Assembly (NCBI GenBank): GCA_039621445.1
Contig: CP154954.1
Location: forward strand, 38,661,301-38,681,300
Direction of reading: 5' to 3'
DNA from: Euglena gracilis
Taxonomy: Eukaryota
DNA: 20,000 bases
A model generated the notes under the pieces. The model had not been told where the DNA came from, ran no database searches, and saw only the letters and a program-made list of their open reading frames with translations. Positions 421-20,000 of this stretch are shown in pieces (positions within the stretch are counted from its first letter, which is position 1; the number at the start of each line of letters is the position of its first letter). The translations under genes were made by a program, and so were the position numbers.

Positions 421-2233
421 GCGTACGGATCTGATGCAGGGGAGAGCGACGATGGGAAGAAAGGGTTGAAGAAACGGCGGCCTTCGCGCCCACGAGGTCC
501 TGGCTGTGTTTGGTTTGTGTTTTGTGTTTTGCGTGATCACGGATTGGAAGCTTTTATTTTTCGGCCGGTGCTGATCCAAATATATTGGCTGCTTTGGTAG
601 TGAAACCCGGGACACTGTCCACATCTTGGAAAAGTTGCCTTCGAGCTTTGAATGGCCATTTTAAAATGCTGCCCTCCCCCCCCCCCCCTTCCAGAGGCCC
701 AGTGGTGAACCGTGGGGTTGTCGCCAGGCATTTGCTTAAGGGATTGCAGTACCCCCCCCCCCCGGGGGGGGGCTGGACTGCAGCTAGTCCAAATTTGGCT
801 AGTGGGTTTTCTAGCAGACCCCCCGGGAGGGGGGGGTCTGCTAGCAGGGCTAGCTAGTGGAAAAAAATTTTCCAGTGACCGGCGCGAAGCGCCGAAAATT
901 TTTTTGGGGACCCCCAAAAATGGCCAAAAATGCCCGTTTTTGCACATTTTTGGGAATTTTTGGAACAAAATCAGCCAAAAACCTGTTAAAAACCTCATTT
1001 TTCCTCTGGCGCACAGCGCCGGAGGAAAAAATTTTTTCTAGTCCGGGGGACCCACGGACCCCCCCCCCCCCCGGGGGGGAGGGGGGGTCTAGCTAGTCCA
1101 CTTTTTCCAGTGTCTAGCCGATTGGCTAGCCAGTACCCCCCCCCTGGGGGTCCTTAAGCAAATGCCTGGTTGTCGCTGAAGCCAGAGGACACCCCATCCC
1201 AGGGGCTCCCCCATCGATGTGCTTTAAGTTTGTCCCAGCTGCCCAAAGGGCGGTTAGACGCAGCAGATGTCCTGCAGGTCTCTGGGTCATGCATTTATTG
1301 AGAACCCCCCCCCCCCGGTGGGGTAGTAGTTGACTCGTTGCTTGTCTGCAGATTCTACACCCACTGGTCGGCAACAGTCACCACAAGCCACTGCAGAATG
1401 TGCTTTTTTTGCGATGCCAGGCACCAGATTCCTGCTGGCACACATGAAAGGTGAGCAGGGGTTTTCTTAGACCCCCCCCCCGGGGTGGGGGGGTCCCACA
1501 GGCCGGCCGGAAAATCGTGCAAAAAAATGGTGCAGGTGGGGGGAGAGGGTCCGGCCGGCTGGGAGCTGGACTCGGCGTGTGCCCAGAAAAAAACCCCCCA
1601 AAAAGCCCAAATCTGCTCAGGGCCTCAGCGTCGCTTTGCTTTGGGTTGGCCTCAGGGTTCACATTTGTATATGAACCCCCCTGGGGAGCAGGGCTCCACT
1701 TAAAGAGCCAGAGCGGACCTGGGGGAGAGTTCCAGCCAGCCATGAGATTTCTTCTGGCCAGCATTTTTTTTCAGCCCAGGATCCCCCTCCCCTGGCGACG
1801 GATTTTATTTTTTTGTTGTTTTTTTGTCTGGCCGCCCAAAGGAGTAATGGATTTTGGAAGGTATTTTGGTGGGCCAAGGGTTGGTTAGCAAGGAGTTGCT
1901 CCGCTCAAAGTTTAAGTCGTCTCACGCTGGGTTGCTTTTCAGGCCGTTTTGATGGAATTGGTGTGTCGGGTCCCAGTTCGACCCCGGCCAGGCCAGTTCC
2001 AGCCTGAGGACCCCGGGGAGGGGCCAGCCAGCAGCTTTCTTCCGGTCGGCTCACATTTTCCCGCCCTGAGCTGGCCGGCCGCCAAGCGGGGGGGCCGGCC
2101 TGGGGCCGAACCAGCGAGGCATTCTGCGGTGCCCGGTACCCCCCAGCCCGCTGCCCCCGGCGCTGCCCCGGTGGAGAGCCGGCTGATGAAACCCACCGCC
2201 AGTTTCTTGCGAAAGACTACCACTCGCGTCTGA
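421..2233 (+). CDS. 3' part of an upstream unidentified gene: exons ~421-496 and ~1992-2233 (stop TGA), low-complexity C-terminus
   Basis: Acceptor CCTGCAG ends at 420, then AYGSDAGESDDGKKGLKKRRPSRPR. GT at 497 and AG at 1990-1991 join in frame to GQFQPEDPGEG...SRLMKPTASFLRKTTTRV*. Both exons are GC-rich. The exact junction is uncertain. Confidence 0.55.
725..1168. mobile_element. hAT-type MITE, family A copy 1 (444 bp)
   Basis: 17-bp TIR CAGGCATTTGCTTAAGG / CCTTAAGCAAATGCCTG; perfect 8-bp TSD GTTGTCGC (717-724, 1169-1176); subterminal CTAG repeats; a second copy at 7420. Confidence 0.93.
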
Positions 2234-5570: not shown

Positions 5571-5713
5571 ATGCCCGGCCGCCTGCTGCCAGCCATCACA
5601 CAGCCCGAGGGCACCGCGGCCCCGGGTCGCTGGGCGCTGCTGGGGCCCCTGGGCCTTTGCCTGGTGGCCGGGCTGGTCGGCTCCGCCCTCCTGACCGGAC
5701 AGCGCATGCCTCC
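5571..5713 (+). CDS. Exon 1: signal-peptide-like N-terminus (MPGRLLPAITQPEGTAAPGRWALLGPLGLCLVAGLVGSALLTGQRMP)
   Basis: ATG in a GCCATG context, followed by a hydrophobic stretch. The exon ends at a nonconventional junction, with a possible 1-nt ambiguity. Confidence 0.75.
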
Positions 5714-8205
5714 CATCAGTGCTTTTCCAAAGAAAAAAGCCTCAAAAAACCTGTCCCCCACCCATGGAAAGCGCCACCTCCCTCTTTTTGTTGTACCTCC
5801 CCCCCCCCATGCCCAATGAACACCCTTGCCCAATGAACAGGGGGTGTTCGGACCGTCTAGATTGTCACCATATACCCTATCTACACAGAAACCGTACCCA
5901 AAGCCCAATGAACACCCCCCGTTCGGACCGTCTGGATTGTCACCTTAGTGTTCATTGGGCTTGGGGGGGGAGGTACCTCCCTCGCGTGTCAACATTTCAG
6001 CACAATTCCTGGCATATTTGCATTTTTTTGTTTTTTGATCTGGCCTCATCACACCGAATGCTTTTCTCCTCCGTCTTGATGATTTGGCGGAAAAGTCAAT
6101 TGGCACCAAGAGTCAATTGGCACCAATTGCAATGCTGCGCTTGTTGCACAATTTCATCCTGGAAAACAAAACAGACGAACAAGGCTGGTGGCCACTCCGG
6201 GGGCCGAACTCACACGTTCAACACCGCAGCGACACACTGATGCCGCCGACCGAGCACTTTGTTCGCGTGGCCCCTGTCACCCAACCCACGGCCGTGGTCG
6301 CCGCCGTCCCCCCTCGGCTGCGAGATGCGGTGGCCCAGGGACCAACAGCACTGGCGGGGTTTCTGAAGGACGCTGACGTGCCCACCGTCCAGTCTCAGGT
6401 TTTTTTGTCTGTGTTGGATGCGGTACATGTGCATTCATTAAACCTCTGCTGCCTGGCCCCCAGATTCTGGAGTAGGTGGGTTTGGGCATTCTGGGTTCTG
6501 GTGGGGGGGGATGTCTCTGCCCGTGGTCCAGATGCCCAAGCAGCCATTTACGTGTACCATTTATCATACCATTTGTTTGCCATTTATTTGTGCCATTTAT
6601 CCGTGACTCACGGTTATTGGCCACAGACCCTCCTGGCCAACCCCTAGGGGAGTGAGACAGGAATTTTTCTTGGAGATACAGCCGAAATCTATGGTATGCG
6701 ATTTTTGGATAAGTTTGTGTTGTGTAGTTTTTGTTGACCCCCCCTCCACAAAGGGTTGGAGTGATGGACTGGATCTCAGAGAAGACTGGTCTTTGAAAGT
6801 GAAGAATGACCCTGTCCCCATTGATATGCCCCCCCCCCCAGACAAGAAGGGGGGCACAAACCACACCGCCAGTTTTTGTACCAAACCTTTTGGCACAGCC
6901 GTATATGAACTGGGTGAGGATTGGTAATTTTCCATGGGCCAAAATCTACCTGCCAAAAAGTGCCACCAACCCCCGGGACCAGGTCACCTGGGTTCCCCAC
7001 CCCCCAAAACCCCATTATCACTGGAACCACTGCTGGTTAACAACCCCGAATAGTGAAATTTTGGCAATTTTTCGGCATAAATCGGGGCGGGGGGGGGGGC
7101 GTGATTTTCAGGGCCAGGTTGCCTCAATGCCAGGAAACGGGGGGACCCCCCTAAGGTATCAAAAGCGCACGAAACCTTCTTCGGACCTGGACTGCCATTG
7201 CTTTGCCCTTGACTCAGCTGACCGCTGTCCCTTCTGTTCTTTTTTTTGCAGCACAGCGACTCGCCCCACGCGTTGGGCTCCTTTGCGATGGTGGCCCTCG
7301 GCAGTGCAGTGGCTTTCGTGTGGGGACAATGCCATCCGGAATGATGTCCCCGATTGTTGTCTTTCCCGCCGCCTCCCAAGGTTGGAAAGTGGTCATGCCA
7401 GCACTTGCCATCATGCAATCAGGCTTTTGCTTAAGGGATTGCAGTACCCCCCCCCCCCGGGGGGGGGCTGGACTGCAGCTAGTCCAAATTTGGCCAGTGG
7501 GATTTCTAGCAGACCCCCCCCGGGGGGGGTCTGCTAGCAGGGCTAGCTAGTGGAAATTTTTTTCCCAGTGACCGGCGCGAAGCGCCGAAATTTTTTTTTG
7601 GGACCCCCAAAATGGCCAAAAATGCCCGTTTTTGGCCATTTTTGTGAATTTTTGGAACAAAATCAGCCAAAAACCTGTTAAAAACCTCATTTTTCCTCCG
7701 GCGCTGCGCGCCGGAGGAAAATTTTTTTTCCAGTCCGGGGGACCCCCGGACCCCCCCGGGGGGAGGGGGGTCTAGCTAGTCCACCTTTTCCAGTGTCTAG
7801 CCGATTGGCTAGCCAGTACCCCCCCCCGGGGTCCTTAAGCAAAAGCCTGCATGCAATGCAGGGCGTCCCCCCCCCCTGTGCGCCACAGGGCCGTTTGACA
7901 CAGCTGGAGTTTTAATCTGCATGCTTGAATCACAGTGCTTCAAAATGAAACACAAAAGGTGTTCTGAAGTGCAAACAACACAAAAATTTTTGTGGTATGT
8001 TTACTGACTGAAAGTCTAGTTTGGATGCGTGGCTGCCTTTCCAACATTTCCCGGTGGCATGGCGGTGATATCTCTTGGGACGCAAGCGACCTCAACCACT
8101 ACCCATGGCGATGGCCTCCGTCGGCGATGAAGGTGTGTGGTTTGACTTTCCATTTATTATTGTTTATTATTTCTATTTATTATTTATTATTTATTACTTG
8201 TTATT

Positions 8206-8272
<67 letters not shown>

Positions 8273-8299
8273 TTTTATTATTTTTTTATGTATTTATTT

Positions 8300-8339
<40 letters not shown>

Positions 8340-11300
8340 CTTATTTATTATTTTTTCTTGTTGGAAAAGTCAGAGGAAACAAATTTGCCATTTTGGTTGT
8401 GAATTCTGGACAACGTTTTCCAGTGGTTATGTCCCCACTCCCTCTTGATGCGTTTCTTTGGACCTCTTCCCCATTCTTTCCTCTGTTTCTCTGCCTGCCT
8501 CCGGCGTTGGCGTTCTGCAAACCTTCTGGCTCTCTCATCTTTTCTTCAGATGAAGGGCCGATGGCCGTGTGAACTTAGTGGGGGGAAGGAACCAGTCACC
8601 CATCTGCCCCCTCAGGGTTTTTTTTAATTTGGAGACTTTGATTTTGATTTTTAATTTGGGGACTCACCCCCCCCCCTGGGGCGGGTGAGTCCCCCCCAAG
8701 GTAGTCAGCCAGATAGTCCCTCGCTCAGAGGCGGGGTTTTGGCTTTTTTTTGGCACAAGGTGCCGATCTTTTTGACCCCAAAATGGGTCCCCACACTGGC
8801 AGGGGGCACCCCCCTGCCCCTGAGTGGGTGGGGGAAGCCAGTTTGTAAAAAAATAAACACTGGCCCAACGCCCGTCTTTGCCAGAGAACCGCAGCGAGTG
8901 GGACAAGCGGGTGTCGGTGCTGGACCAGGGAGCGCCAGGTGTGCTCCCCTCCGGGGGACGCCCTCGGGCGCTATTTGCGATGCGGCCGAACCAGAGAACC
9001 ACCCGATTGCCGACATCCCCACCTCGCAGAAGAGGCACCTTCAGGGGCGAACCTTGCAGATATTTCTTGCAGATATTCCCACATTTTCCACACAAGCAGT
9101 TTTGTTCATTTGTGGGATTTTTGTTTCCAACAGGATTCCGCTTTTAAATGGCAGGTATTTTGGACGCCCAAAAAAATCACTTCGGGGTTTGCTTCTCCCG
9201 GGCACTGCCCCTGGGGGGAGCACCTGTGCCCGCCCAGGCATTCTAGGGTACTCAAGCCCCCCCCCCCCGAGGTTGATCAAATTTGTTTAGCCTGTCATCG
9301 TCACCGCAGCATTCCTTCCAAATAGCTGGAAACTGGCAAACTTGGGCATTGAAGTGGGATAAAAAGCGAGAAAGGAACAAAACCATGAAAATAATTGCGT
9401 GGTGTGGAAACGTTAAGTAATAATCCTATGTGGACTTGGAAAACAGCATTGTGGTTTTGGCATGCATTTGGGGGAATCAGAGCTCTGCGGTTGGCAGCGT
9501 GCAAAAATGTGGAGGAAACCATCGAGCTTCATCGACCACGGGAAAGTATCAGGACAAAGTCCAAAAGCAAGAGAATGCATGGCTTTGTATATTTGCCCTC
9601 TTGTTCCTCAGACACCCGCCATGTGTCGGAGGCAGATTTTGGGAATCTGCTGGTCAAGTTCGTCCAAGAACGTTTTGGGGAGGAGCAGACCAAGCGAATT
9701 GTTGACTCTTTCCGTCGGGTGTGTACTGTTACTCACTGCCCACCTTTTTTAAACACTCCGCATAATTCCTTTTTGTTTATTTGTCATATTTTTTGGTGGC
9801 ATTTAGTCAGAAATGGACATGGCTCAAATTATTATTATACATTTACAATAAATGATTTGCAGTAAATAATAATAATAATAAATGGCAAATAATCAGATAT
9901 ATTCATTGCATGAACAGGGTGGTTCTCAGGCGGCCGGCTTCGCGTTTTCGTGTTGGTTTGTGCATTTGCGCAAATCAACACGGAAAAAAATTGGCAGTGT
10001 GACTACGGGGAGTCGCAGGCATGACACAGTGACCAGCGAGTGGAAATAATGAGTAAGCTGCGTAAATTATGGCGGGTGTAACCCCAGGTATTTTGGCGAA
10101 ATATGGTGTTTTTTGGGGGGGGTCTGGAAATGGGCTCCGCATCTCAAAACTCCCGGGACTTTCCTCCCCGGAATGACAAAAATGCAAAAAAAAAAAAAGA
10201 GGCAAAGGAATGGGACTTTTACCCCCTTCTTGCTCCTTTTATTTAGTGTTATGTGTTTGGTGTGTTTTGCAAAGTGCGGGGAGGGGATGCTGGGGCCTGT
10301 GGGTGTGGTGTGACCAAGCTGGCGGGAAGGACGTAGAGCAAGGAAGGTAAGTGCAGGGTATTTAGCAAGGGATGGGCAGGGGGGGAAGAAATGGGGTGCG
10401 CAGGACGGGCGTTCCCACACAACTTGTGTCCGGGATACCATTGCTTTTCACCTGTCCCACGGGGGTGCCTGACTGGTTTTTGTGAGTGACCCCCCTCCCC
10501 CCTGGGGGGGTCGCTCAGCAATGGTATGATCCGCACAACCAGTTTTGTCACAAAGAACCCGGAAGAAGAAGCACAACCTTTGAAGAGCAAAATTTATTAG
10601 TGGGTGTGAATGCACACACAAACAAATTTTGTTCGTGCGAGCTTTCACGCCCATGAACACAATTTTGTTCATGGACGCCTGTGAACTGACGCCGTCGATA
10701 AACGGCATGACGAAGGGGCCGTGACAGCACGGCGCCAAAAACATATTTTGGGGGGTTTGTCACACCGTTTATCGACGACGTCAGTTCATGGGCGCCAAGG
10801 CGCTCACAAGTATTTGTTTGTGCGCGCATTTGCGCCCACAAACAAAATTTGTTCATGGATTCTGAATGGTCGACACATGGTGTGACAAAATACACAGCCA
10901 TCAAATGCGGGTGAATCGCTGAAGCGCGCATCACGTTTTGTTCGTGAGCACCATGCCCCAAAATGAACCAGTTGCAGAAAATCACAAGGGGTCCATTTGC
11001 GCCTGAGCCCCACACGAACAATGTCCCTTCGTTGTTCTGTTTTCCACCAAGGGTCCGCCCGTTGTTTCGCCCCTGTTCCGCACCGTGCCCCCTTGTGTGC
11101 CAGACGGAGCGGGGCGAGGAGTTCCGCCAGCGGTTCGGCCCGCACCCGTTCATGGAGCAGATCGCCAGCTCATACATCGCAGGACTGGCCAGGACTCCGG
11201 AGAACCTGTTGTGTGGTTTAGACTGGCGGCGCCGCGGCCGACGGTTTTGTGCGCTGCGGCCAATGCCACACCGGAATTCATTTGCGCCACGACCGGTGCC

Positions 11301-14300
11301 GAAAAACTATTCTGTGTCGCAAGGCACCAATTGCATGCTCCACCTCCCCGGCACAGCCCTGGGGCTGACCACCAAACCGGACTGGCCCGCCCCCGCCCAG
11401 ACCTACCCCTGGGCCAAGGTGGTGCAGGAGGGGTGGCCGACCATCCGCGCCGAGCTTGAGGAGGTGTGCCTGGGTGCAGGGGGCGCGTGCCACCACGGCA
11501 CTGGTTCCGTGATTCCATTGGGTTGGGCTTGGCAGGAGGAAAACTTGACCTGGACAAATTTGTGCAGTTAATACTGCCCAAATATGTTTGGATAGTTTCT
11601 AAAATTGCCCAAACTTGCTTTGTTTATTTCAAGCATGTGAAATGCCAAACACCAAATGCACACCCTCCAAATAATTTTGCTCCCCTGAGAAGTTGGTGGG
11701 CCGATCTCATTTGGGCAGTGTTTAAAACCATTGACAAACCAATTTTCCATTTTCAATAAGAGTGATTTTGTGTCAAATGCTCTACTTACCAAGTATTTTA
11801 TCTGATTCGACATCTCTGTTCACTGGACGACAAAACATTGCATTTCGAACGATTTGTTTGTGTTTACCGCCTGGGCATTTTACAGAAATGTGCATCGTTT
11901 TTCATGTTGTTGCTTGTGGGGGGGGCACTGTCATTTGGACGGACAACCATGAGCATGAGTTATTGACCGATGAGGGGTCCCAGGTTCACTTCTGCACAAA
12001 TTTTTCCTTTTCTTTTGTGCAAGCACCGTTATTTGCATTTTTTTTTAAGACAGTGCCTGCAGATGACACTTGGATGCCCCCCCCCCGTGTCCAACAAGCA
12101 TCCATTGTCTGGACAGTTTTCCCTGTCCATTCCGTGTTTGCAGTGAATGGGTGGCTTTTGTCTGTATGGCCAAAATGGTATTTTTGAGGGTTTTTTTTAG
12201 GGTTTTACCTGAATTTTTTTTGACTGAATACCAGCTGGCTTTGAGCTGTTTGCTTTTTTCAAGTTTCTTCCGGTCGGCAGGTCGGCAGCCTGCTGCCCCG
12301 CCCCCCCCCCAAAGCGTGGGGTCCATTTTTCTGGCCAGCTGCCCCTAGTGTGGTTTTTCGACCCCCCCCCCCTCGCAGGTACCCTTGAGAAATTCTCTGA
12401 ATTTCGACCTTGCCATTGTTGAGAGGGACGGGGGTGTCGCCCACCCCCACCCCTTGCATCGCCCAGTGCCCCTGCCAAAACCGTTGTGTGTGTCGGTGTC
12501 GGTCGATTTTTGCACACAAAATAGAACTCCAGTTGGCCCCACTTTTCATTTGCGACTGTCGAATTTGCCCGCCAATTGCATGTTTTCAGTATCAACATCT
12601 GAACAAAATTCATGTTACAATTAGTTGCACCATCAACAATTTTCCCCAGAGGGGGGAGTTTTCCCAAGTCCTGGCCAGAACTGAAGTAACCTGGGGAGCT
12701 TTTGAAGGAATTTAGATACAACAGCTTTTTTTGCAGTTTTTGTGTGTTTTTTTTGTCGCATTTTTCGAGGGTCCCCATTCAGCCCCCCCCCGGGTGTCCC
12801 CCCTTCGCCCATCCCCAGGCCATCCGCCTGGGGGACGAGGGGCTGAAGGCGAAGGGCTCAGTCAGCTGGATGGGGGCGCAGGGCGGCGCCGACTCCTACG
12901 GCACTGAATGGAAGACCCTGGGCCTGTGCGACCGGGGCTACTGGGGCCATGCCGCATGGTGGCGTGGCGGCCACCCCGACCGCGCCGGTACCCCTTGGTC
13001 GGCTCACCTGGCCCTGTGGGGAAACGCTCACACGCCCGTCAAACTGGAAAAGGATTGGGGGTTCCCATTATGTTCCCCGGGACAGTTATTCGAGTGTGCC
13101 GGCCGGATTAGTGCTGAAGAGTGTGAAAAACGTGCGGATGTCACAAAACTTGCAATTTTTTGAATGAATCTGGATGGGTGGTCAGGGACCCCAAATGTGG
13201 TACCCCTTGTCACGGTGGTCTGCGGGGGGGGGGGGGGCATGGGTCGACCCCACACGCGTGAGGGCTGTTGCGGAGCTTCTTTGCTGAGGGGGCGGTTGGA
13301 ACGAACCCGCTGGGGGCGCAACAAATTGGGGCTTGTGGCGGGAGGCCCACCCTGGGGGCCATCCGGCATGCCTTCGACGATGACAACACCCGGCTGTTCA
13401 AGAACACGTGCCGCATCCTTCGCAAATCGAGGTGCGCTGAGTGGGTTTGGTTGCTCCGGTACCACCCCGGAGTTGGATTGTTCTCGCGATGCCAAGGTGG
13501 ATCGTTTGCTGTTCTCTTGATTGAGAGTTTTCTGGTTTCGCTGCACATCTTCATTAAGATCTGTTCGTTGGCTGTGCCACTAGGTTGCCCCCCCCCCACC
13601 CCCGGAGAGAGAAGGGGACCCCCCACCCTTGAGGTGGTCTGGGCGGGTTGGTGTGCCTGGGCCTGGACCTCGGGGGGCGGGGGCTTGGGTATGGGTTTCG
13701 GCACGAAGCGCCAGAAATTTTTTGGGAACGTTTTCAGACGGCCCAATGTTTTTTGGTGCCCCCCCCCCCCTTGGGGTGTCCTGCACTGGGCTTGGTGGGT
13801 TGCCTGGAACCCCCGGAGGGGCCGTAAAAAAAGGAAGTCCGATCAGGTCCCCAAACGTTCTGCAAGGCTGGGAAATGATGTTTCCGTCGGGGCAGTGGTG
13901 CGTTGAGGCATACGCTGGGCCACCAACGCCCCTGCCCCGCGCGGTGCGGGCTGCGCGGCCCAGGGCCCCCATCATGGAGTGCTTCTTCGCCAAGATGCCG
14001 GCGCACACGGCCATCAAGCCCCACTCCGACTACACCAATTTCGTCCTGACCTGCCACCTCGGCCTGAAGACCCCACCGAAGAGCCACATCGCCTGCGGGG
14101 ATGCCCGCCATGAGTGGAGGTGCGCGCACAATTTTGATGCTATCGTCCCAAGAATTTCAATTTATGGTCGAAGTTCGTCTTTATATTTATCCTGCAAGCT
14201 GTCAGTTGCCACCATGGTTGTTGAAATGAGAGAGAACTCCCAAGGCCCACCATGCAGGAACCGGAATGCAAACGTTTTTTTTTTGTGTGTGCGTTTTTTT

Positions 14301-17292
14301 CATGCTTTTTGGGGTTTTTTTTGTTTTGTGTTCCTGCTTTGCTCGGAGTTTTTCCGACCCGCAAAAATTCTACCTTTTTGGTCCTGATATTTTCCCGAGA
14401 CTAAAGTTTTTGCCAAAAAAGGTGTTTTTTTTTTTGGACCTTTGGCCAACAAATTGCAGAAATTTGGAATGGTTTGCAATGGTGAAAGCCATTCCCCCAA
14501 AAAGATGAAAAAATTTTCCAAGTCCTCTCCTGCAGAAACGTGTACATCCTGGGGGAGCTGAAGGAATATACATGCATTCTTTTGCATCTTTTGGCGTCGT
14601 CAAGGGTCAATGTTGCATTTTCCTCCCCTTGCTTTATGGTGAAGGGTCCAATGCTGTCTCCCATCTGCCTGGGCATTTGGCTGAGCCCACATATTAATTT
14701 AGCATCTGCGTGACCCCCCCCCAGGTTTTTGAAAGTGGGTGGGTGGGTTGGGCCGCTGGAACCCTCCCCCCAGGGTGCACCATGGGTCAGTCCGGCGGCC
14801 GGCAATCCAGGCAATTGCTTAAGCACTGACCGACCCCCCCTCCCCGGGGGGGGGTGACTGGTTTTTTCAGAGTGACTGACAGGTCTTTGGCCCGGACTCC
14901 CTCCCCCCCTGGGGGGGGGTCGGCCAGCAGTGGGTCAAAAGTGGCTTGAGTGACCCCGGCGCCTTTGGCGCCGGAAAATTTTTTGGCCTAAAATGGCCTA
15001 AAGTGACTGGAAAGTGGCCGTTTTTCTGAGTGGCCGACCCCCCCCCCGGGGGGGTAGTGACTGGCTGGTTTTTTGAAAATGAGTGACTGACTGGTTTTTT
15101 TTTATAAAAAAGTGGAGTGACCCCCCCCTCCCCCCCCCCCCCCCCGGGGTCGGTAAGCAATTGTATGGTCCGGCCAGTCAAAGGCCATGCTGGGAAAAGT
15201 TTGCAAGAGTTTCTGGCCGATTTTAGGCGAGTTTTGGGTGCGTGGGTTGGTTGGCGTGGGTTTTCAATAAAAGTGGGGGGGGTGGGTTTAAACCCACCCC
15301 GAGGGGGTCTCGGAGTGCCATGGAGTGTCTGGGCAGCCAAAGGCACTGGAGGTCCATTTTTTTTTGCTCAATTTGCCTAAAAGCTTGCCTCTGCAAGGTT
15401 GCTGACTCTTCCAGAAACCCATGCAAATAAAAATTTCTGAAAATGACTGAATTTTTTTTTGCAAGTCCGCACGAAACACAAAGTACGTTATTTTGGGGCC
15501 CTCGAATGATGTGCCGATTTTTAGGTCAAACGTTCCTTCGGTGCCGAACGAATGTCTCTGCACGGCGCTGTGGGGGGACTCTCTGACTGCTGGGGGGCTC
15601 CGACATAAATTCAGTTGGTACCTCCCTGGGGGACAGGCAACCCCGGTTTTTGGTCTCCGGTGGGGTCCGGTGGGATCCGGTGGGTTGCCTTGGGGGGGGG
15701 GGGGGCGGGAAAAAACAGATGTGGCAAAGCGGTTTGGACCGGCTTTTTGCATAGGCACCACCCCTGCCGGGGTCTGCCTGCCGAGAAGAGTTTGATGAAA
15801 ATGCATCGCACCTGAATTGTCGAATTGACGGAGACGTTATCATTCAAAAACCCCATAACCTGTTAGTTTATCAGACTGCTGAGTCGACCTATAGTTGAGT
15901 CGACCAACTAGGTCGGTTGGCTGTACAAGAACTCCGTGCCCATGCAGTGCCACCACATTCATGGCCTGGAGTCAGGGTTTTGGCCTTTTTTTTATTGTCC
16001 CACATGAGTCACCTTTTGGCTCTGTTTAATGGGCCCAGCCAGGTGCTCTCTTTTTGCCCCATCACCACGTGGGACCACCACATGGCGATGCCCTTATAAT
16101 GAAGAAATCCAGAAGAAAAATCTGTGCGTGGAAGAAAATTTCCGGTGGGATGCGGTGGGATCTGGTGGGAAGTCCCCAGTCAAATGGTAAAAAAAAATCC
16201 CCGGTCGGATCCGGTGGCTGTCCTTGCCGGCTGGGGGAGCACTTTTCCCTGGGCTCAATTTTGGTGTCCAGGGGCCTGTGGCGTTCACCCGGGAGTGCAA
16301 AGACCTGTGGTTGCGTCGACCCGTTCAATTCACCATGGGTCGACTAACCCTTGAAGAATTCATGGACCCACGGGGTTGGATAGCCAACGAACACACCCCA
16401 TCAGCAGATTGGATTGCTGAGTCGACTCAACAGGACCACCCCCTGCAATTTGATTTTCCGAGGGTTGGTCGACCCATGGTTCAGTCGACCGACTGAGACT
16501 GCGAACATATTCAGGGGGTCCAACCTCAACGTATTCAGGGGGTCCAACCTCCCCCCCAGTTTTCTGTCATCCCGGATCCCCCAGGTGGTCTGACAACGCT
16601 TTTTTTTCTGTCAGGTCGCTTTCGACTCGTTTTGGCTACTTCAAAAGCAAAAAAAAAAAATCCGTCTGTGTTGGGTAGCTGGATAAAGATCGAAATACTA
16701 CGACCGTATGATTAAAATTTGTATTATTTTGCTCTTTCTGGATTTTTTGTTGCTGTTTTGATTTTTCTGGGCGTAGCTCCAGCTGCAGGACCCATCTGGG
16801 GGGTGTTATACCACCTGTGGGTGGTCGAGGGTGGTCGACCCCCCACCTGGTTTTCTTTCAACCTGGAGGGAGTGTTTCGACCTTGTTCTGACACATTTTT
16901 TGAAGTTTTTCCCCCCTCAATTGCATTTCCTTTTGCCCCTTTTGTGGTGCTCTCTTCTGACAGGGACGGAGAGATGTTCCTGCTGGACACCACGTTCATC
17001 CACGAGGCGGTCAACGAGTCCGATGAAGACCGCTACGTGTTGCCCTCGGCATTGCTGGGGAGGGGGCCCCGCATAACGCCCCAAGCGAGGGACATAGCAC
17101 CGTCCAGGTAGGGGCTGGGGCCAAGGTCACCCAATGCATTGCCATGCTGAGAGGACAATCATGCGGGTGTGGCATCCGGATCTGACGGCGACGGAGATCG
17201 AGGCAATCACTTTCTTGTTTGACTGCGTGGACGACAGCGATATCATCTTGCACCCTGATGGTCTGGCCATGTACGATATGATGAAGGTGTAG
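5571..17292 (+). CDS. Multi-exon gene: plastid-targeted ASPH-family (aspartyl/asparaginyl beta-hydroxylase domain) Fe(II)/2OG dioxygenase, ~441 aa. Exons: 5571-5713, 6245-6398, 7252-7324, 8067-8132, 8885-8938, 9612-9718, 11104-11186, 11367-11463, 12819-12944, 13376-13431, 13964-14119, 16964-17041, 17157-17286 (then GTG TAG, or a further intron)
   Basis: The exons join with consistent phases into 1323 nt of open frame. The product has ASPH-family motifs: YIAGLTTKPDW...WPTIRAELEE, WKTLGL, FFAKMPAHTAIKPHSDYTNFVLTCHLGL, HEWRDGEMFLLDTTFIHEAVNESDEDRYVLIMRVWHPDL. Exons are GC-rich islands in low-complexity introns. The true 3' end is uncertain. Confidence 0.88.
5714..6244 (+). other. Nonconventional intron 1
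   Basis: No GT-AG. The 5' CATCAGTG pairs with the 3' CACTGATG; CAG at +4..+6 and CTG at -8..-6. Removal restores the frame. Confidence 0.7.
5793..5976. mobile_element. Inverted-repeat element inside intron 1
   Basis: ~30-bp inverted ends GTACCTCCCCCCCCCATGCCCAATGAACAC / GTGTTCATTGGGCTTGGGGGGGGAGGTAC. Internal direct repeats: GCCCAATGAACA x3 and GTTCGGACCGTCTRGATTGTCACC x2. Confidence 0.65.
6245..6398 (+). CDS. Exon 2: Ala/Pro/Thr/Val-rich transit-peptide-like region
   Basis: PTEHFVRVAPVTQPTAVVAAVPPRLRDAVAQGPTALAGFLKDADVPTVQSQ; ends CAG|GT in phase 0. Confidence 0.75.
7252..8132 (+). CDS. Exons 3-4 (7252-7324, 8067-8132): stop-transfer helix and basic/PMAMA segment of the presequence
   Basis: Spliced, they read HSDSPHALGSFAMVALGSAVAFVWG|YLLGRKRPQPLPMAMASVGDE. 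Acceptor TTTTTTTGCAG ends at 7251; donor GTGTGT at 8133. Confidence 0.8.
7325..8066 (+). other. Nonconventional intron 3 (contains a MITE)
   Basis: 5' GACAATGCCATCCGGAATGATGT pairs with 3' ACATTTCCCGGTGGCATGGCGGT in the +n/-(n+2) register. Removal rebuilds a continuous transmembrane helix. Confidence 0.8.
7420..7849. mobile_element. hAT-type MITE, family A copy 2 (430 bp), inside nonconventional intron 3
   Basis: TIR CAGGCTTTTGCTTAAGG / CCTTAAGCAAAAGCCTG; perfect TSD CATGCAAT (7412-7419, 7850-7857); colinear and highly similar to 725-1168. Confidence 0.93.
8152..8352. repeat. (TTTA)n microsatellite in intron 4
   Basis: About 200 bp of imperfect TTTA/TTA repeats. Confidence 0.95.
8885..9718 (+). 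CDS. Exons 5-6 (8885-8938, 9612-9718)
   Basis: ENRSEWDKRVSVLDQGAP|DTRHVSEADFGNLLVKFVQERFGEEQTKRIVDSFRR, with AG/GT sites and matching phases. Exon 5 is phase-symmetric, so it is less certain. Confidence 0.7.
10434..10528. mobile_element. Short (95 bp) relative of family B
   Basis: ATACCATTGCT / AGCAATGGTAT inverted ends. The interior and right end (TGACTGGTTTTT...GTGACCCCCCTCCCC...GGGGTCG..AGCAAT.GTATG) resemble 15085-15167. Confidence 0.6.
10543..10890. repeat. Long imperfect inverted repeat (foldback, ~350 bp)
   Basis: Paired arms include TGAACTGACGCCGTCGATAAACGG / CCGTTTATCGACGACGTCAGTTCA, CACAAACAAAT / ATTTGTTTGTG and TTTTGTCACA / TGTGACAAAA. Confidence 0.85.
11104..11463 (+). CDS. Exons 7-8 (11104-11186, 11367-11463)
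   Basis: TERGEEFRQRFGPHPFMEQIASSYIAGL|TTKPDWPAPAQTYPWAKVVQEGWPTIRAELEE, the motif that precedes the ASPH catalytic domain. Confidence 0.85.
11187..11366 (+). other. Nonconventional intron 7 (180 nt, in frame, no stop)
   Basis: CT|GGCCAGGACTCCGG...CCGGCACAGCCCTGGGGCT|GA, with Y|R at both junctions, CAG at +4..+6 and CTG at -8..-6. Confidence 0.85.
12819..14119 (+). CDS. Exons 9-11 (12819-12944, 13376-13431, 13964-14119), including the HxD metal-binding motif
   Basis: AIRLGDEGLKAKGSVSWMGAQGGADSYGTEWKTLGLCDRGYW|DDDNTRLFKNTCRILRKSR|APIMECFFAKMPAHTAIKPHSDYTNFVLTCHLGLKTPPKSHIACGDARHEWR. Confidence 0.9.
12945..13375 (+). other. Nonconventional intron 9
   Basis: CATGCCGCATGG (from +4) pairs 11/12 with CCATCCGGCATG (ending at -6). 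Removal joins GYW to DDDN. Confidence 0.85.
14808..15167. mobile_element. MITE, family B (360 bp), with a TIR related to family A
   Basis: CAGGCAATTGCTTA / TAAGCAATTGTATG (12/14); repeated GTGACTG motif; no clean TSD. Confidence 0.75.
15872..16501. mobile_element. Degenerate MITE-like element with GTCGAC subterminal repeats
   Basis: CAGACT...AGACTG ends with clusters of GTCGAC at both ends; an inverted partial copy at ~18144-18255; no TSD retained. Confidence 0.55.
16964..17286 (+). CDS. Exons 12-13 (16964-17041, 17157-17286), with the distal His, the 2OG-binding Arg and WHPDL
   Basis: DGEMFLLDTTFIHEAVNESDEDRYVL|IMRVWHPDLTATEIEAITFLFDCVDDSDIILHPDGLAMYDMMK. Confidence 0.9.
17042..17156 (+). 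other. Nonconventional intron 12 (115 nt)
   Basis: TT|GCCCTCGGCAT...ATGCTGAGAGGAC|A; an 8-bp stem with one G-U pair in the +4/-6 register and Y|R at both junctions. Removal joins DRYVL to IMRVWHPDL. Confidence 0.87.
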
Positions 17293-17564
17293 GATGTGCA
17301 GTGTGCAGACAGAGTGTGGGAAGCCATGGTTGGTGATAGCTGGAGGCCGAAGTTGAGAAGTACAATGCGCATGATTTTCCTCACTGGAATGTGGAGGTTT
17401 GGCACGAATTTTTGACGTTGATTTGTCAGTTGGGCATGGAAAATATTTAGTTGCATGTGCAATAAATGTTCACCTCCAAAGTGGTTTGAATTTATTGTAG
17501 ATATGTTTCTTCTGGAATCAGGGGGGCAGATTTTTTTTGAGTTTTGTGACCCTGGGGGGTGGTT

Positions 17565-17945
17565 CAGGGTTTTATATAAGGAGGGCGTATATGGTTTAGG
17601 TGGGGGGGTGTCCCCCCACCCCCCTCCCCCTCCTGGCCCGCGGGGGGGGGTCCGCCCCCCCCCCACCTGCCAGGGGGTGGGGGATACCCGGGACCCCCCC
17701 CAAAAAGGGTCAATTTTTTCCTCTGGCGCTTTGCGCCGAAAATTTTTTGCATTTTTTTGGAAAATTTTTGCCCAAAAAGTGCCCAAAATGGCGCTTTTGG
17801 TCGTTTGGGGGGGTCAAAAATTTTCGGTCACCCAGACCGCGCCACTGTTCAGGTGGGGGGGGGTCCCCCCACCCCCCCCCCCTCCTGGCCCGCAGGGGGG
17901 GGGGGTCCAGGCCACCCCCCCCACCTGTCTTTATATCAAACCCTG
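17565..17945. mobile_element. hAT-type MITE, distinct family (381 bp)
   Basis: TIR CAGGGTTTTATATAA / TTATATCAAACCCTG (14/15); perfect TSD GGGTGGTT (17557-17564, 17946-17953); internal duplicated G/C-run block. Confidence 0.9.
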
Positions 17946-20000
17946 GGGTGGTTGGTTGGGTCACGGCCGAGCCCCCTCCGGGGGAGGGGGGGGTTGGGCT
18001 GAGTGGGTGCCCCTTGGTGGTGGGGTTTTGGTCTATTTTTTGGCAGGAAGCAGCGAAAGGATCTTTGGACGCCAAAAGTGGGTCCGGGCCCCTTCCACCC
18101 TCCAGGGTGGGTGGGTGGGTCCGGACCCCGGGGGGTCTTTTTGACAGACTCAGTCGATCGACTCAACATTGAGTCGATCGCTTGAAGGGTTGATGAGAGT
18201 TGATTGGCAGGGGGGGGGGTTCCATTGAGCCAGTCAACTCAACAATTTGCTGTACCCCAAACGGGTTAACCTTCCGAAGATCCTGCAGGGCTTGCTTATA
18301 CAATGGGGATCGGCGCCAGGGGTTAAAAAAAAACCATGCCCCAAATGCATGTTTCCCGCTGTGGTTTTGGTTTTCCCCAAATTTCCCAAAATTAAACATT
18401 AAATAATTTTGGAACATGACGTTCTTTGAAGGAACAAAGTCAGCTTTGGGTGGTATTTAGCATTGAAAAAGAAAATGGTTTCACTTGGTTAGGTCTTTTG
18501 CCATTCTTGCCACACCATGAACCCCCCTCCTTGGAGCCCTCGCCACACTGTGCGGCAGAGGTTTTTTTAGTGCCCAGGGTGGAGGGAGGGGGGGGTCTGG
18601 ACCCATCCACCCACCCTCTGGTCCCCCCTTGGGGGGCTCAGGGGTTCCACCGTTGGGGTCATTTTGGTAATTTTTTTCATCGCCAAAAAAATAGAGCTGA
18701 TTTGGCTGATTTCTGCTGTCCTTACACCATTTTAATGCAAATTCCTTCGTATTGTCCAGTCAGGGGTTGCTTATATTTGGGTTGTGTTTATATTTCGGTG
18801 GTGGCTGAAAATCGGCCAAAGGGTTGCTTGGTTTTTTTGAGGGGGGTTGCTTATATTGGGGGGGGGGGTGTTTCTTGGTGATAATATCTCTCTCCATCAG
18901 CTTTGACAGTTCAGGTGCGATGTCATCATCAAAAGCTCTTTTCGCTGATTTTTTTTGCACTTTCAACAAATTTCCCATTGCCAAAAAGGAAGACATTCAT
19001 CATTCTATTTTTAGTAAAAAAAATCGATGGCTAGCAATTTTAGTCCATCGCAATCTGAAATATTTGTTTAAAATGGAAGTTCTATTGCAGAATTTAAGGT
19101 TCGAAAGGGATCCACACAGCACAGAAAATGTACCAAGGTTTTCCAGGAATCGTCAAGAATTTGCAATTTTCCAAAAAAAATAAAAAAATGGATTGCAAAG
19201 TTTGACCTTTACCTGGCATTATGGATACAAATGACGAGGAAGCAACTGTTAAATTTGAGCATCCCAGTACACCGTCTGTGGAGGTCTTAGGACAGGGCAT
19301 CAAGTGGCTGGCTTTGTTCAGGGGTTGCCCCATATGTGGGGAGCCCTCAATCCTCCCCAGCCCTGAAACCCCCGAAATTACGGCTAACCATCGGCATTGG
19401 AGGCATTTGAATTGAGAGGCATTTGCAGTGGTCATCTACTGCATTTGCTGCATTTGCTGTGCTTCACAACAAATTTTTTTGCCCTTTTGCACATGGGGAG
19501 GGTTGTGTCACCCTCAGCTTCCATTTTCTCTCACAGGCCCACAGAATAATGGAGTGGAATACCATCCTTGGTCCTGGGGACACAGAGGAGGAGTCCCACA
19601 CAGGCCTTTTCTGTCGAAAGGGAAAAAGGAGGACTAGTTTGGCTGACAGGAGGACCAGTTTGGCATCTCAATTGTCAACTCAAGGTTGGGTGCAAAGGAA
19701 TGTCGAATGTTTAAAAACGGTCTCAAATTGTCTGTCTCAAATTGGGCAGTCACCTCAACGGCTTGAAAGAGACAGACGGGCACTTTGCAGCTCAGAAGTC
19801 GTTTGATCGGTTGTTTTTGGTTTGGGGCAAATGTGGGGGTGGAGCACCCGCTGGATGATTACGACGCAGATGGCAAGAAGAGGCCTCCATCCAAGAAATT
19901 CTGCGCCAAATAGCAGAGGGCCAGATACCGGTGTGTTGCAAGTGCATGATTTCATAAATGCATGGATGCTCGTGCATGATGCATTTGTGGTGTGTGTGTG

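Follow-up and report, generated by a model that had tools for sequence, protein, structure and literature searches.

Gene structure and encoded protein

The window analyzed here, a stretch of 20,000 nucleotides from Euglena gracilis (contig CP154954.1, positions 38,661,301 to 38,681,300), contains on its plus strand a nuclear gene of 14 exons that extends from position 5571 to at least position 19597 and encodes a protein of the Asp/Asn beta-hydroxylase family (PF05118). When reading frames were joined by script, the frame proved to be uninterrupted once five intervals lacking GT-AG ends were taken out together with the GT-AG introns. Nonconventional (N) and conventional (C) introns follow each other along the gene in the order N C N C C C N C N C C N C. 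Those of the nonconventional kind, termed NC1 to NC5 in the following, coincide exactly with five intervals that an initial annotation of the window had proposed to be removed without GT-AG ends. In agreement with that proposal, GT/GC-AG borders are absent from all five at the junctions implied by homology or frame, where the intervals instead read CA..CC, GA..GT, GG..CT, GG..TC and GC..AC. With a probability of roughly 0.8, as judged from sequence evidence, we assign them to the known class of euglenid nonconventional introns, of which they appear to be a clean but ordinary example. The seven GT-AG introns that the annotation had counted between the first and the last of these intervals were also recovered, this number being correct only with a 54-nucleotide exon at 8885-8938 that was found through the homologues P0002 and P0011.

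The encoded protein comprises at least 461 residues and is extended N-terminally by a stretch that includes two hydrophobic segments. Exon 11 on its own matches the Pfam family PF05118 with an E-value of 1.9e-13 and 51 bits (gathering cut-off 22.6), and the homologue P0002 matches it with an E-value of 9.9e-37 and 126.6 bits. Positions of all exons and introns are compiled in Table 1.

Pairing of the ends of the nonconventional introns

With positions counted inward from the 5' (+) and the 3' end (-) of each intron and with the borders of the initial annotation, each of the five nonconventional introns has base +n opposite base -(n+2), and all five pair in this register, just as had been claimed. 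The Watson-Crick runs of NC1 to NC5 amount to 8, 6, 5, 7 and 3 bp, that of NC5 increasing to 8 if one G:U pair is accepted, vs. 3 bp at most in the eight GT-AG introns. The helices span positions +1 to +8 in NC1, +5 to +10 in NC2, +3 to +7 in NC3, +4 to +10 in NC4 and, including the G:U pair, +4 to +11 in NC5. Positions +4, +5 and +6 are fully paired with -6, -7 and -8 in four of the introns, while in NC2 this applies to +5 and +6 only, as +4 and -6 are an unpaired A and G. The letters of the end triplets had been quoted correctly for all five introns (CAG/CTG, AAT/ATG, CAG/CTG, CAT/ATG and CTC/GAG), but AAT/ATG at 7325-8066 is complementary at two of its three positions only. Downstream exons start with G, G, G, G and A, i.e., a purine in each case, and the introns themselves start with C, G, G, G and G, i.e., a purine in four out of five. 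The borders of NC1 can be slid leftward by 2 nt.

Stability of the paired ends was assessed in the manner of Gao et al. (PMC11170887), in which 10 nt from each end are joined by seven U and folded (dG10). Values for NC1 to NC5 were -8.6, -6.0, -7.1, -7.2 and -6.5 kcal/mol, i.e., they range from -6.0 to -8.6 kcal/mol, whereas the eight GT-AG introns gave 0 to -4.5 kcal/mol; the corresponding dG15 values for NC2 and NC4 were -13.8 and -15.2. Chance rates were derived from 20000 random pseudo-introns drawn from the window, among which a paired +4 to +6 triplet occurred at a rate of 0.019, runs of at least 5, 6, 7 and 8 bp at rates of 0.0077, 0.003, 0.00115 and 0.0005, and a dG10 of -6 or lower at a rate of 0.077. 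For the individual introns, chance rates lie between 0.0005 and 0.047, and even with several candidate borders per intron the pairing of the ends is far beyond chance. Folding of complete introns closes the ends in three of the five (NC1, NC4 and NC5, with pair probabilities of about 0.7-1.0): the terminal helix is part of the minimum free energy (MFE) structure of NC1 with base-pair probabilities of 0.68-1.0 and of that of NC4 with probabilities of about 1.0, and the ends of NC5 are closed in the MFE structure with probabilities of about 0.9 (z = -1.98). Among the GT-AG introns, all but the two longest were folded, and none of these six showed the terminal helix.

A terminal sequence family common to the five introns was considered and dismissed as unconvincing, the mean pairwise score being 5.8 vs. 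5.17 for random 30-mers, with three of 40 pairs above the 99th percentile. NC2 and NC4 have CATGCC at +4 to +9 in common, in the contexts AATGCCA/TGGCATG (7328-7334 and 8055-8061) and CATGCCG/CGGCATG (12948-12954 and 13364-13370). They may stem from one element family with CATG instead of CAG ends, a resemblance that is marginal given 40 comparisons.

Table 1. Exons, introns and MITEs (transposable elements of the miniature inverted-repeat type) in the window. In intron motifs the last slash marks the 3' junction; TIR, terminal inverted repeat; TSD, target-site duplication.
Feature	Position	Strand	Remarks
Exon 1	5571..5713	+	Start codon, first hydrophobic segment; gene model
NC1	5714..6244	+	531 nt; CAT-CAG...CTG-ATGCC/G; fits N3CDG/CH'GN5/R
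Exon 2	6245..6398	+	Gene model
GT-AG intron 1	6399..7251	+	GTTTTT...TTTTGCAG; ends unpaired, dG10 0.0
Exon 3	7252..7324	+	Second hydrophobic segment; gene model
NC2	7325..8066	+	742 nt; GAC-AAT...ATG-GCGGT/G; outside CDG/CH'G; nested MITE
Exon 4	8067..8132	+	YLLGRK matches P0002; gene model
GT-AG intron 2	8133..8884	+	GTGTGT...TTTGCCAG; intron at same place in the gene of P0002 (P0011)
Exon 5	8885..8938	+	54 nt, ENRSEWDKRVSVLDQGAP; matches DNRGEWEKRASMMDAPP of P0002/P0011
GT-AG intron 3	8939..9611	+	GTGTGC...TTCCTCAG; same place in P0011
Exon 6	9612..9718	+	Gene model, P0002 alignment
GT-AG intron 4	9719..11103	+	GTGTGT...GTGCCAG
Exon 7	11104..11186	+	Gene model, P0002 alignment
NC3	11187..11366	+	180 nt, in frame, open; GGC-CAG...CTG-GGGCT/G; fits published code
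Exon 8	11367..11463	+	Gene model, P0002 alignment
GT-AG intron 5	11464..12818	+	GTGTGC...ATCCCCAG
Exon 9	12819..12944	+	Gene model, P0002 alignment
NC4	12945..13375	+	431 nt; GGC-CAT...ATG-CCTTC/G; third pair T:A, outside CDG/CH'G
Exon 10	13376..13431	+	Gene model, P0002 alignment
GT-AG intron 6	13432..13963	+	GTGCGC...GGCCCAG; unspliced copy in another data set is P0001
Exon 11	13964..14119	+	HSDYTNFVLTCHLGL, core of PF05118
GT-AG intron 7	14120..16963	+	GTGCGC...CTGACAG; site and phase same in P0015
Exon 12	16964..17041	+	Gene model, P0002 alignment
NC5	17042..17156	+	115 nt; GCC-CTC...GAG-AGGAC/A; third pair C:G, outside CDG/CH'G
Exon 13	17157..17286	+	P0014 is an allele of exon 13 from another data set
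GT-AG intron 8	17287..19536	+	GTGTAG...CTCACAG; outside the span of the initial annotation; same site in P0012/P0013
Exon 14 (start)	19537..19597	+	AHRIMEWNTILGPGDTEEES matches P0002/P0003; traced as far as 19597
MITE, second copy of the family nested in NC2, upstream of the gene	725..1168	.	TSD GTTGTCGC; TIR 14/14, TSD 8/8
MITE nested in NC2	7420..7849	.	CAGGCTTTTGCTTAAGG...CCTTAAGCAAAAGCCTG; TIR 14/14; TSD CATGCAAT 8/8 at 7412-7419 and 7850-7857
MITE of another family, in GT-AG intron 8	17565..17945	.	CAGGGTTTTATATAAGG...CCTG ends; TSD GGGTGGTT; TIR 13/14, TSD 8/8

Support for the junctions from homologues and from the genes of relatives

The search with exon 11 retrieved P0002, which is 71% identical over this exon and comprises 474 amino acids on a contig of 1621 nt, and which we therefore regard as an intron-free, cDNA-like record. 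Its alignment revealed the 54-nt exon as well as the exon starting at 19537, and it runs without insertions across the junctions of NC2 (VWG/YLLGRK), NC3 (IAGL/TTKP), NC4 (RGYW/DDDN) and NC5 (RYVL/IMRVW). A library-wide search with P0002 yielded 4081 relatives at E <= 0.001. From 150 listed homologues, 51 (P0002 and P0017-P0066) were aligned and the 12 residues around each junction were checked for insertions and deletions. Such changes are absent at the NC3 junction in 43, at the NC4 junction in 36 and at the NC5 junction in 50 of the 51 sequences. The NC2 junction is free of them in 2 of 40 homologues and is colinear with GIGYLLGRR of P0002; together with NC1 it lies within the poorly conserved N-terminal part of the protein. 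On this comparative basis, homology strongly fixes the junctions of NC3, NC4 and NC5, while that of NC2 is fixed through close relatives only.

Alternatives to these junctions were sought as every frame-keeping GT/GC...AG pair within 60 nt of each of them and compared with the gene model by alignment score (1248 for the model). For NC2 to NC4, the best alternatives lose or gain 3-15 residues and score 1217-1226, i.e., they cost 22-31 points; nine amino acids are lost in the best alternative for NC2, and at least four are gained in those for NC4. Retention leads to stops at residues 82 (NC1), 129 (NC2), 373 (NC4) and 420 (NC5).

Gene structures of relatives were read from short records that run through intron borders. 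Over DGAVSLFDTSFLHAAVNDADEDRYVL, P0016 shows full identity to P0002, after which it continues with other sequence (PLAPHH...), so an intervening sequence interrupts the gene of P0002 at the NC5 codon, following RYVL, and is missing from P0002 itself. Provided that its phase matches that in the window, this intervening sequence starts with N-C-C and not with GT. The pair P0016/P0002 is database-level evidence for removal at the NC5 site in a close relative. P0012 and P0013, which reside on contigs of 832 and 510 kb and represent the gene of P0003, read continuously through DRYVLILRVWHPEL and accordingly have no intron at the NC5 site; the same gene shares the GT intron after MMK. P0011 has both of the GT-AG introns that flank the 54-nt exon and is uninterrupted at the NC2 site, and in P0015 the GT donor following exon 11 recurs in identical phase. 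Taken together, P0011, P0012, P0013, P0015 and P0016 indicate that the positions of conventional introns are conserved and those of nonconventional introns are not, a pattern that has also been reported for tubulin genes (PMC4770533). Within the equivalent of exon 11 (13964-14119), the gene of P0002 contains an additional intron between HS and DYTNFV (P0015) that is absent from the gene in the window.

Relation to the published splicing code

In euglenid nonconventional introns, the motif is placed with CAG at +4 to +6 and CTG at -8 to -6 (PMC11282704; PMC6221363). Among 55 introns, +5 and +6 were always paired and the +4/-6 pair was lacking once, every downstream exon started with a purine, and the intron usually did so as well (PMC4770533); the purines counted here at all five exon starts and at four of five intron starts agree with this pattern. 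Knock-in mutagenesis as described in the main text of Nomura et al. (2025; PMC12501133) led to a more restrictive view: any single change within CAG or CTG abolished splicing, only the CTG-CAG combination was functional among compensatory swaps of the middle pair, pairing beyond the triplet was needed, and the spacer had to measure strictly 3 nt on the 5' side and 5-6 nt on the 3' side, with a purine starting the next exon. The resulting code, N3CDG/CH'GN5-6/R, is satisfied by 61.2% of nonconventional introns (PMC12501133).

NC1 and NC3 fit this code letter for letter. NC2, NC4 and NC5 retain the 3-nt and 5-nt spacers as well as the purine and have long helices of 6-8 bp; judging from these features they may work like the rest of the family outside the code-defined subset and would belong with the uncovered 38.8%. 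The suggestion in the initial annotation that pairing and spacing rather than the exact triplet define the splice sites therefore holds with respect to the spacers, which are kept throughout, but not with respect to the letters, which matter in mutagenesis (PMC12501133). The idea of complementarity rather than sequence is not new in any case, having been published by Milanowski et al. in 2016; new are the instances, in a gene that is absent from the papers compared. That such introns occur in euglenids and that their removal mechanism is unresolved had been stated in the initial annotation as well and is upheld by the main texts of three publications that call the machinery unknown (PMC11282704; PMC12501133; PMC12621601).

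Homology to P0002 and P0003 ends after EEES in exon 14. Beyond 19597, dozens of candidate introns fit the code and are mutually indistinguishable, which shows that a 3-bp code alone is permissive. A further intron after exon 14 is likely and possibly nonconventional, starting with ACA-CAG at 19598. Within 19598-20000 of the window, a different reading frame terminates with a basic tail (...DDYDADGKKRPPSKKFCAK followed by a stop).

Alternative explanations

A number of observations weigh against assigning all five intervals to the nonconventional class. The NC1 junction is free of insertions and deletions in none of 38 homologues, and only frame, motif and helix place it. The terminal helix is absent from the whole-intron MFE structure of NC2, with or without the nested element, and it reaches a probability of only about 0.2 in that of NC3 (z = +0.42); the folding of each intron proposed as a check by the initial annotation thus bore out closed ends for NC1, NC4 and NC5 and left NC2 without the helix and NC3 with a weak one. 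NC2 (AAT/ATG), NC4 (CAT/ATG) and NC5 (CTC/GAG) do not have the C...G letters needed in the backbone tested by mutagenesis. Retention of NC3 keeps the frame open and would add 60 amino acids, and for NC5 a GT-AG alternative of the same length exists (donor 17039, acceptor 17153) that scores 1243, i.e., 5 points below the model. Finally, the protein collections yielded only the unspliced P0001 and P0014 from this gene and nothing derived from its spliced form: exon 11 had two matches among the longer proteins (P0001, unspliced, and P0002), and among the 15 matches of P0002 to shorter proteins P0001 and P0014 were the only ones from this gene, neither of them spanning a junction. A metagenome scan with P0002 peptides matched 53 stretches, none of which was confirmed.

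It is unlikely, though worth considering for NC5 and NC1, that one or two of the five are spliceosomal introns, conventional or "intermediate", which use nearby GT/GC-AG borders and whose end pairing is incidental. Introns with both kinds of motif do exist and make up 0.8% of all introns in the data of PMC12501133. At NC5, besides the pair just mentioned, 17037...17151 scores 1236; however, these alternatives replace by T or RT a Leu that is present in 50 of the 51 homologues, and their acceptors are GAG behind a purine-rich tract, whereas the eight GT-AG introns of the gene end with a pyrimidine-rich CAG. For NC1, 11 frame-keeping GT/GC-AG alternatives are available, four of which score 1251-1255, and the acceptor at 6229, which could be combined with GT at 5753 or GC at 5708, is a CAG behind C-rich sequence. 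The corresponding donors, GTCCCC and GCCTCC, are nevertheless unlike the GTG donors of this gene, and NC1 combines a perfect in-register helix of 8 bp, expected by chance at 0.0005, with an exact fit to the code. The statement that the conserved protein can only be assembled by removing the five intervals without GT-AG ends is consequently too strong for two introns, NC1 with its equal-scoring alternatives and NC5 with its GT-AG alternative of the same length.

Still less probable is the view that none of the intervals undergoes splicing, with the locus being a decaying copy disrupted by insertions resembling transposons, or with 11187-11366 being a retained, lineage-specific coding insert. 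The missing spliced transcript or protein in the collections, the open frame of 11187-11366 and the richness of the window in MITEs, one of them inside NC2, would agree with it. A decaying copy is, however, difficult to reconcile with an open frame in all 14 exons, with the identity to P0002 over exon 11 and with intact family-conserved residues. Retention of NC1, NC2, NC4 or NC5 introduces stops, the site equivalent to NC5 is cleared in the mRNA-like P0002, and the 60 residues encoded by NC3 have no counterpart in P0002, the junction being ungapped in most homologues. An assembly artefact by which foreign or repeated sequence was misjoined into the gene is very improbable: the region is repeat-rich, but each interval has unique ends that pair in a fixed register, matching unspliced fragments of the locus occur in independent data sets (P0001, P0014), and a relative carries an intervening sequence at the NC5 site.

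Conventional introns and further features of the gene

All eight conventional introns read GT...CAG; seven of the donors start with GTG and the acceptors are pyrimidine-rich CAG. C-rich tracts have been described for conventional introns of Euglena (PMC11170887). The intron at 11464-12818 forms seven end-to-end pairs in its MFE structure (CCTGGGTGCAGGGGG/CCCCCTTCGCCCA), which are out of the nonconventional register and recall the "intermediate" introns of the literature, and that at 8133-8884 contains a long AT-rich tetranucleotide tandem repeat. Past the donor of exon 13, positions 17287-17292 read GTGTAG (MMKV and a stop), while P0014, which is found on seven contigs, reads MMKVW and continues; this TAG/TGG difference within intron 8 between the window and P0014 is allelic.

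The two hydrophobic segments of the protein lie at about residues 21-41 and 106-127 (5571-5713 and 7252-8132 in the window) and are some 65 residues apart, a layout that also occurs in P0002. We take this arrangement to resemble the class I plastid-targeting presequences of Euglena. A named relative, P0005, with 45% identity stems from the prasinophyte Cymbomonas tetramitiformis, and as far as sequence similarity goes this relationship would suit an origin of the gene from a green-algal endosymbiont.

MITEs and a possible transposon origin

Three MITEs in the window end with 5'-CAGG...CCTG-3' and are flanked by perfect 8-bp target-site duplications. Two of them belong to one family, with 90-95% identity between 7420-7849 and 725-1148. 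A scan for inverted repeats with CAG...CTG ends yielded nine candidates, three of which have perfect 8-bp flanking direct repeats; in an unbiased scan of 1029 pairs of 8-mer repeats, the two copies of the first family were the only elements with 12/12 terminal inverted repeats, the third MITE (17565-17945) having been excluded by a low-complexity filter on its duplication. A duplication of 8 bp is typical of hAT elements, and all three MITEs possess the terminal inverted repeats and the 8-bp duplications of hAT-like MITEs. When read with their flanks, as in AAT-CAG...CTG-CATGC/A for 7420-7849 and GTT-CAG...CTG-GGGTG/G for 17565-17945, all three correspond to N3-CAG...CTG followed by five or six nucleotides and a purine and fit the splicing code. 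The possibility that the ends of NC2 pair once the nested MITE has been taken out was considered and rejected, as the fold of the shortened intron still has no terminal helix. Hairpin or inverted-repeat elements whose arms measure 23-43 nt and are 79-96% complementary, without a clear 8-bp duplication, are present in introns at 5801-5970, 10585-10854, 16332-16480 and 18104-18617, and palindromes of C-runs and G-runs (CCCCCCCGGGGGGG) recur across the window.

As the two spacers of the code add up to 8 nt (3 + 5), a cut according to the code would remove such an element together with one duplication and restore the target exactly, in either orientation, so that an insertion into an exon would leave no scar in the mRNA. 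The sum of the spacers thus equals the length of one duplication, which supports a transposon origin. Inspected in the register of such duplications (5709-5716 and 6240-6247 for NC1, with equivalent positions for NC2 to NC5), the five introns show 18 identities at 40 positions (2, 5, 6, 4 and 1 of 8) compared with 10.1 expected (P = 0.008, resampling). The junctions of a recently gained gapC intron of Euglena agilis carry direct repeats of eight nucleotides, interpreted by the authors as the trace of double-strand-break repair (PMC4770533). We tentatively propose, with somewhat more doubt than conviction, that the 3-nt and 5-nt spacers and hence the +n/-(n+2) register are an RNA-level imprint of an 8-bp target-site duplication, that nonconventional introns are domesticated insertions of hAT-like MITEs, and that the machinery would represent a transcript-level defence tuned to the transposon end. 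An origin of these introns from MITEs is an old hypothesis. In a literature search covering the main text of open papers without supplements, neither a named element family nor the 3 + 5 = 8 arithmetic was found, and the MITE end pattern had no matches in the metagenome scan.

Proposed removal and significance

From the anatomy of the gene, the register, the excess of pairing over chance and the agreement with homologues, all of them observed here, we infer that exactly these junctions are used in vivo. The terminal helix would bring the two junctions together and serve as a ruler, such that the 5' cut would precede the +4 pair by 3 nt and the 3' cut would follow the -6 pair by 5 nt, with a purine coming next. 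A non-spliceosomal activity, the chemistry of which is borrowed from the literature, would then ligate the exons and circularise the intron. Nonconventional introns are removed after the conventional ones (PMC11282704; PMC6221363; PMC12621601) and excised as full-length circles (Guminska 2018; PMC6221363; Guminska 2021 as cited in PMC11282704 and PMC12621601), and both late removal and circles would argue for structure-guided endonucleolytic cutting and ligation instead of the spliceosome. An endonuclease acting together with a ligase was proposed for euglenids in 2014 (Milanowski 2014; PMC3935182); a proposal of 2025 involves RNase III together with a ligase (PMC12621601).

Five nonconventional and eight conventional introns in a single gene are to be expected, given that 71.8% of the introns of E. 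agilis are nonconventional and that both kinds occur together in many of its genes (Nomura et al., 2025; PMC12501133), and the finding by itself matters little. Its value lies in NC2, NC4 and NC5 as natural cases outside the CDG/CH'G code with long, compensating helices, which may serve as test cases for the remaining 38.8%, and in MITE ends that together with 8-bp duplications reproduce both the code motif and the sum of the spacers, by which the idea of a MITE-like origin becomes a prediction that can be counted genome-wide.

Comparison with known systems

The five introns are of the same kind as the nonconventional introns described for the euglenid genes tubA, tubB, gapC and hsp90 (PMC3935182; PMC4770533) and genome-wide for E. 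gracilis (PMC11170887) and E. agilis (PMC12501133). They have in common with these the lack of GT-AG borders, the pairing of +4, +5, +6 with -6, -7, -8, CAG/CTG as the commonest triplets and a following exon that starts with a purine, as well as short direct repeats at the junctions, mixing with conventional introns in one gene and variable positions. Noncanonical introns of diplonemids resemble them in that the 5' and 3' ends interact, and spliceosome-independent cleavage of the RNase III type followed by ligation has been proposed for these organisms (PMC12621601). Unlike diplonemids, the host of the gene studied here looks like a phototrophic euglenid on account of its relatives and of the N-terminal extension with two hydrophobic segments.

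By analogy, the bulge-helix-bulge introns of archaeal and eukaryal tRNAs and the IRE1-cut HAC1 and XBP1 transcripts may be considered alike, in so far as both cuts are marked by a local helix and not by sequence and the intron can circularise. Unlike in tRNA introns, no bulge-helix-bulge geometry is seen here and the spacers of 3 and 5 nt are asymmetric; the fold of nonconventional introns has been described as unlike that of tRNA or self-splicing introns (PMC6221363). Introners and other MITE-derived introns, as reviewed in PMC11282704, display terminal inverted repeats and junction repeats resembling target-site duplications, as do the elements and introns described here. Removal of introners is carried out by the spliceosome, however, with GT and AG supplied by the element or by the duplication, whereas removal of the five introns of the beta-hydroxylase gene appears to be guided by structure.

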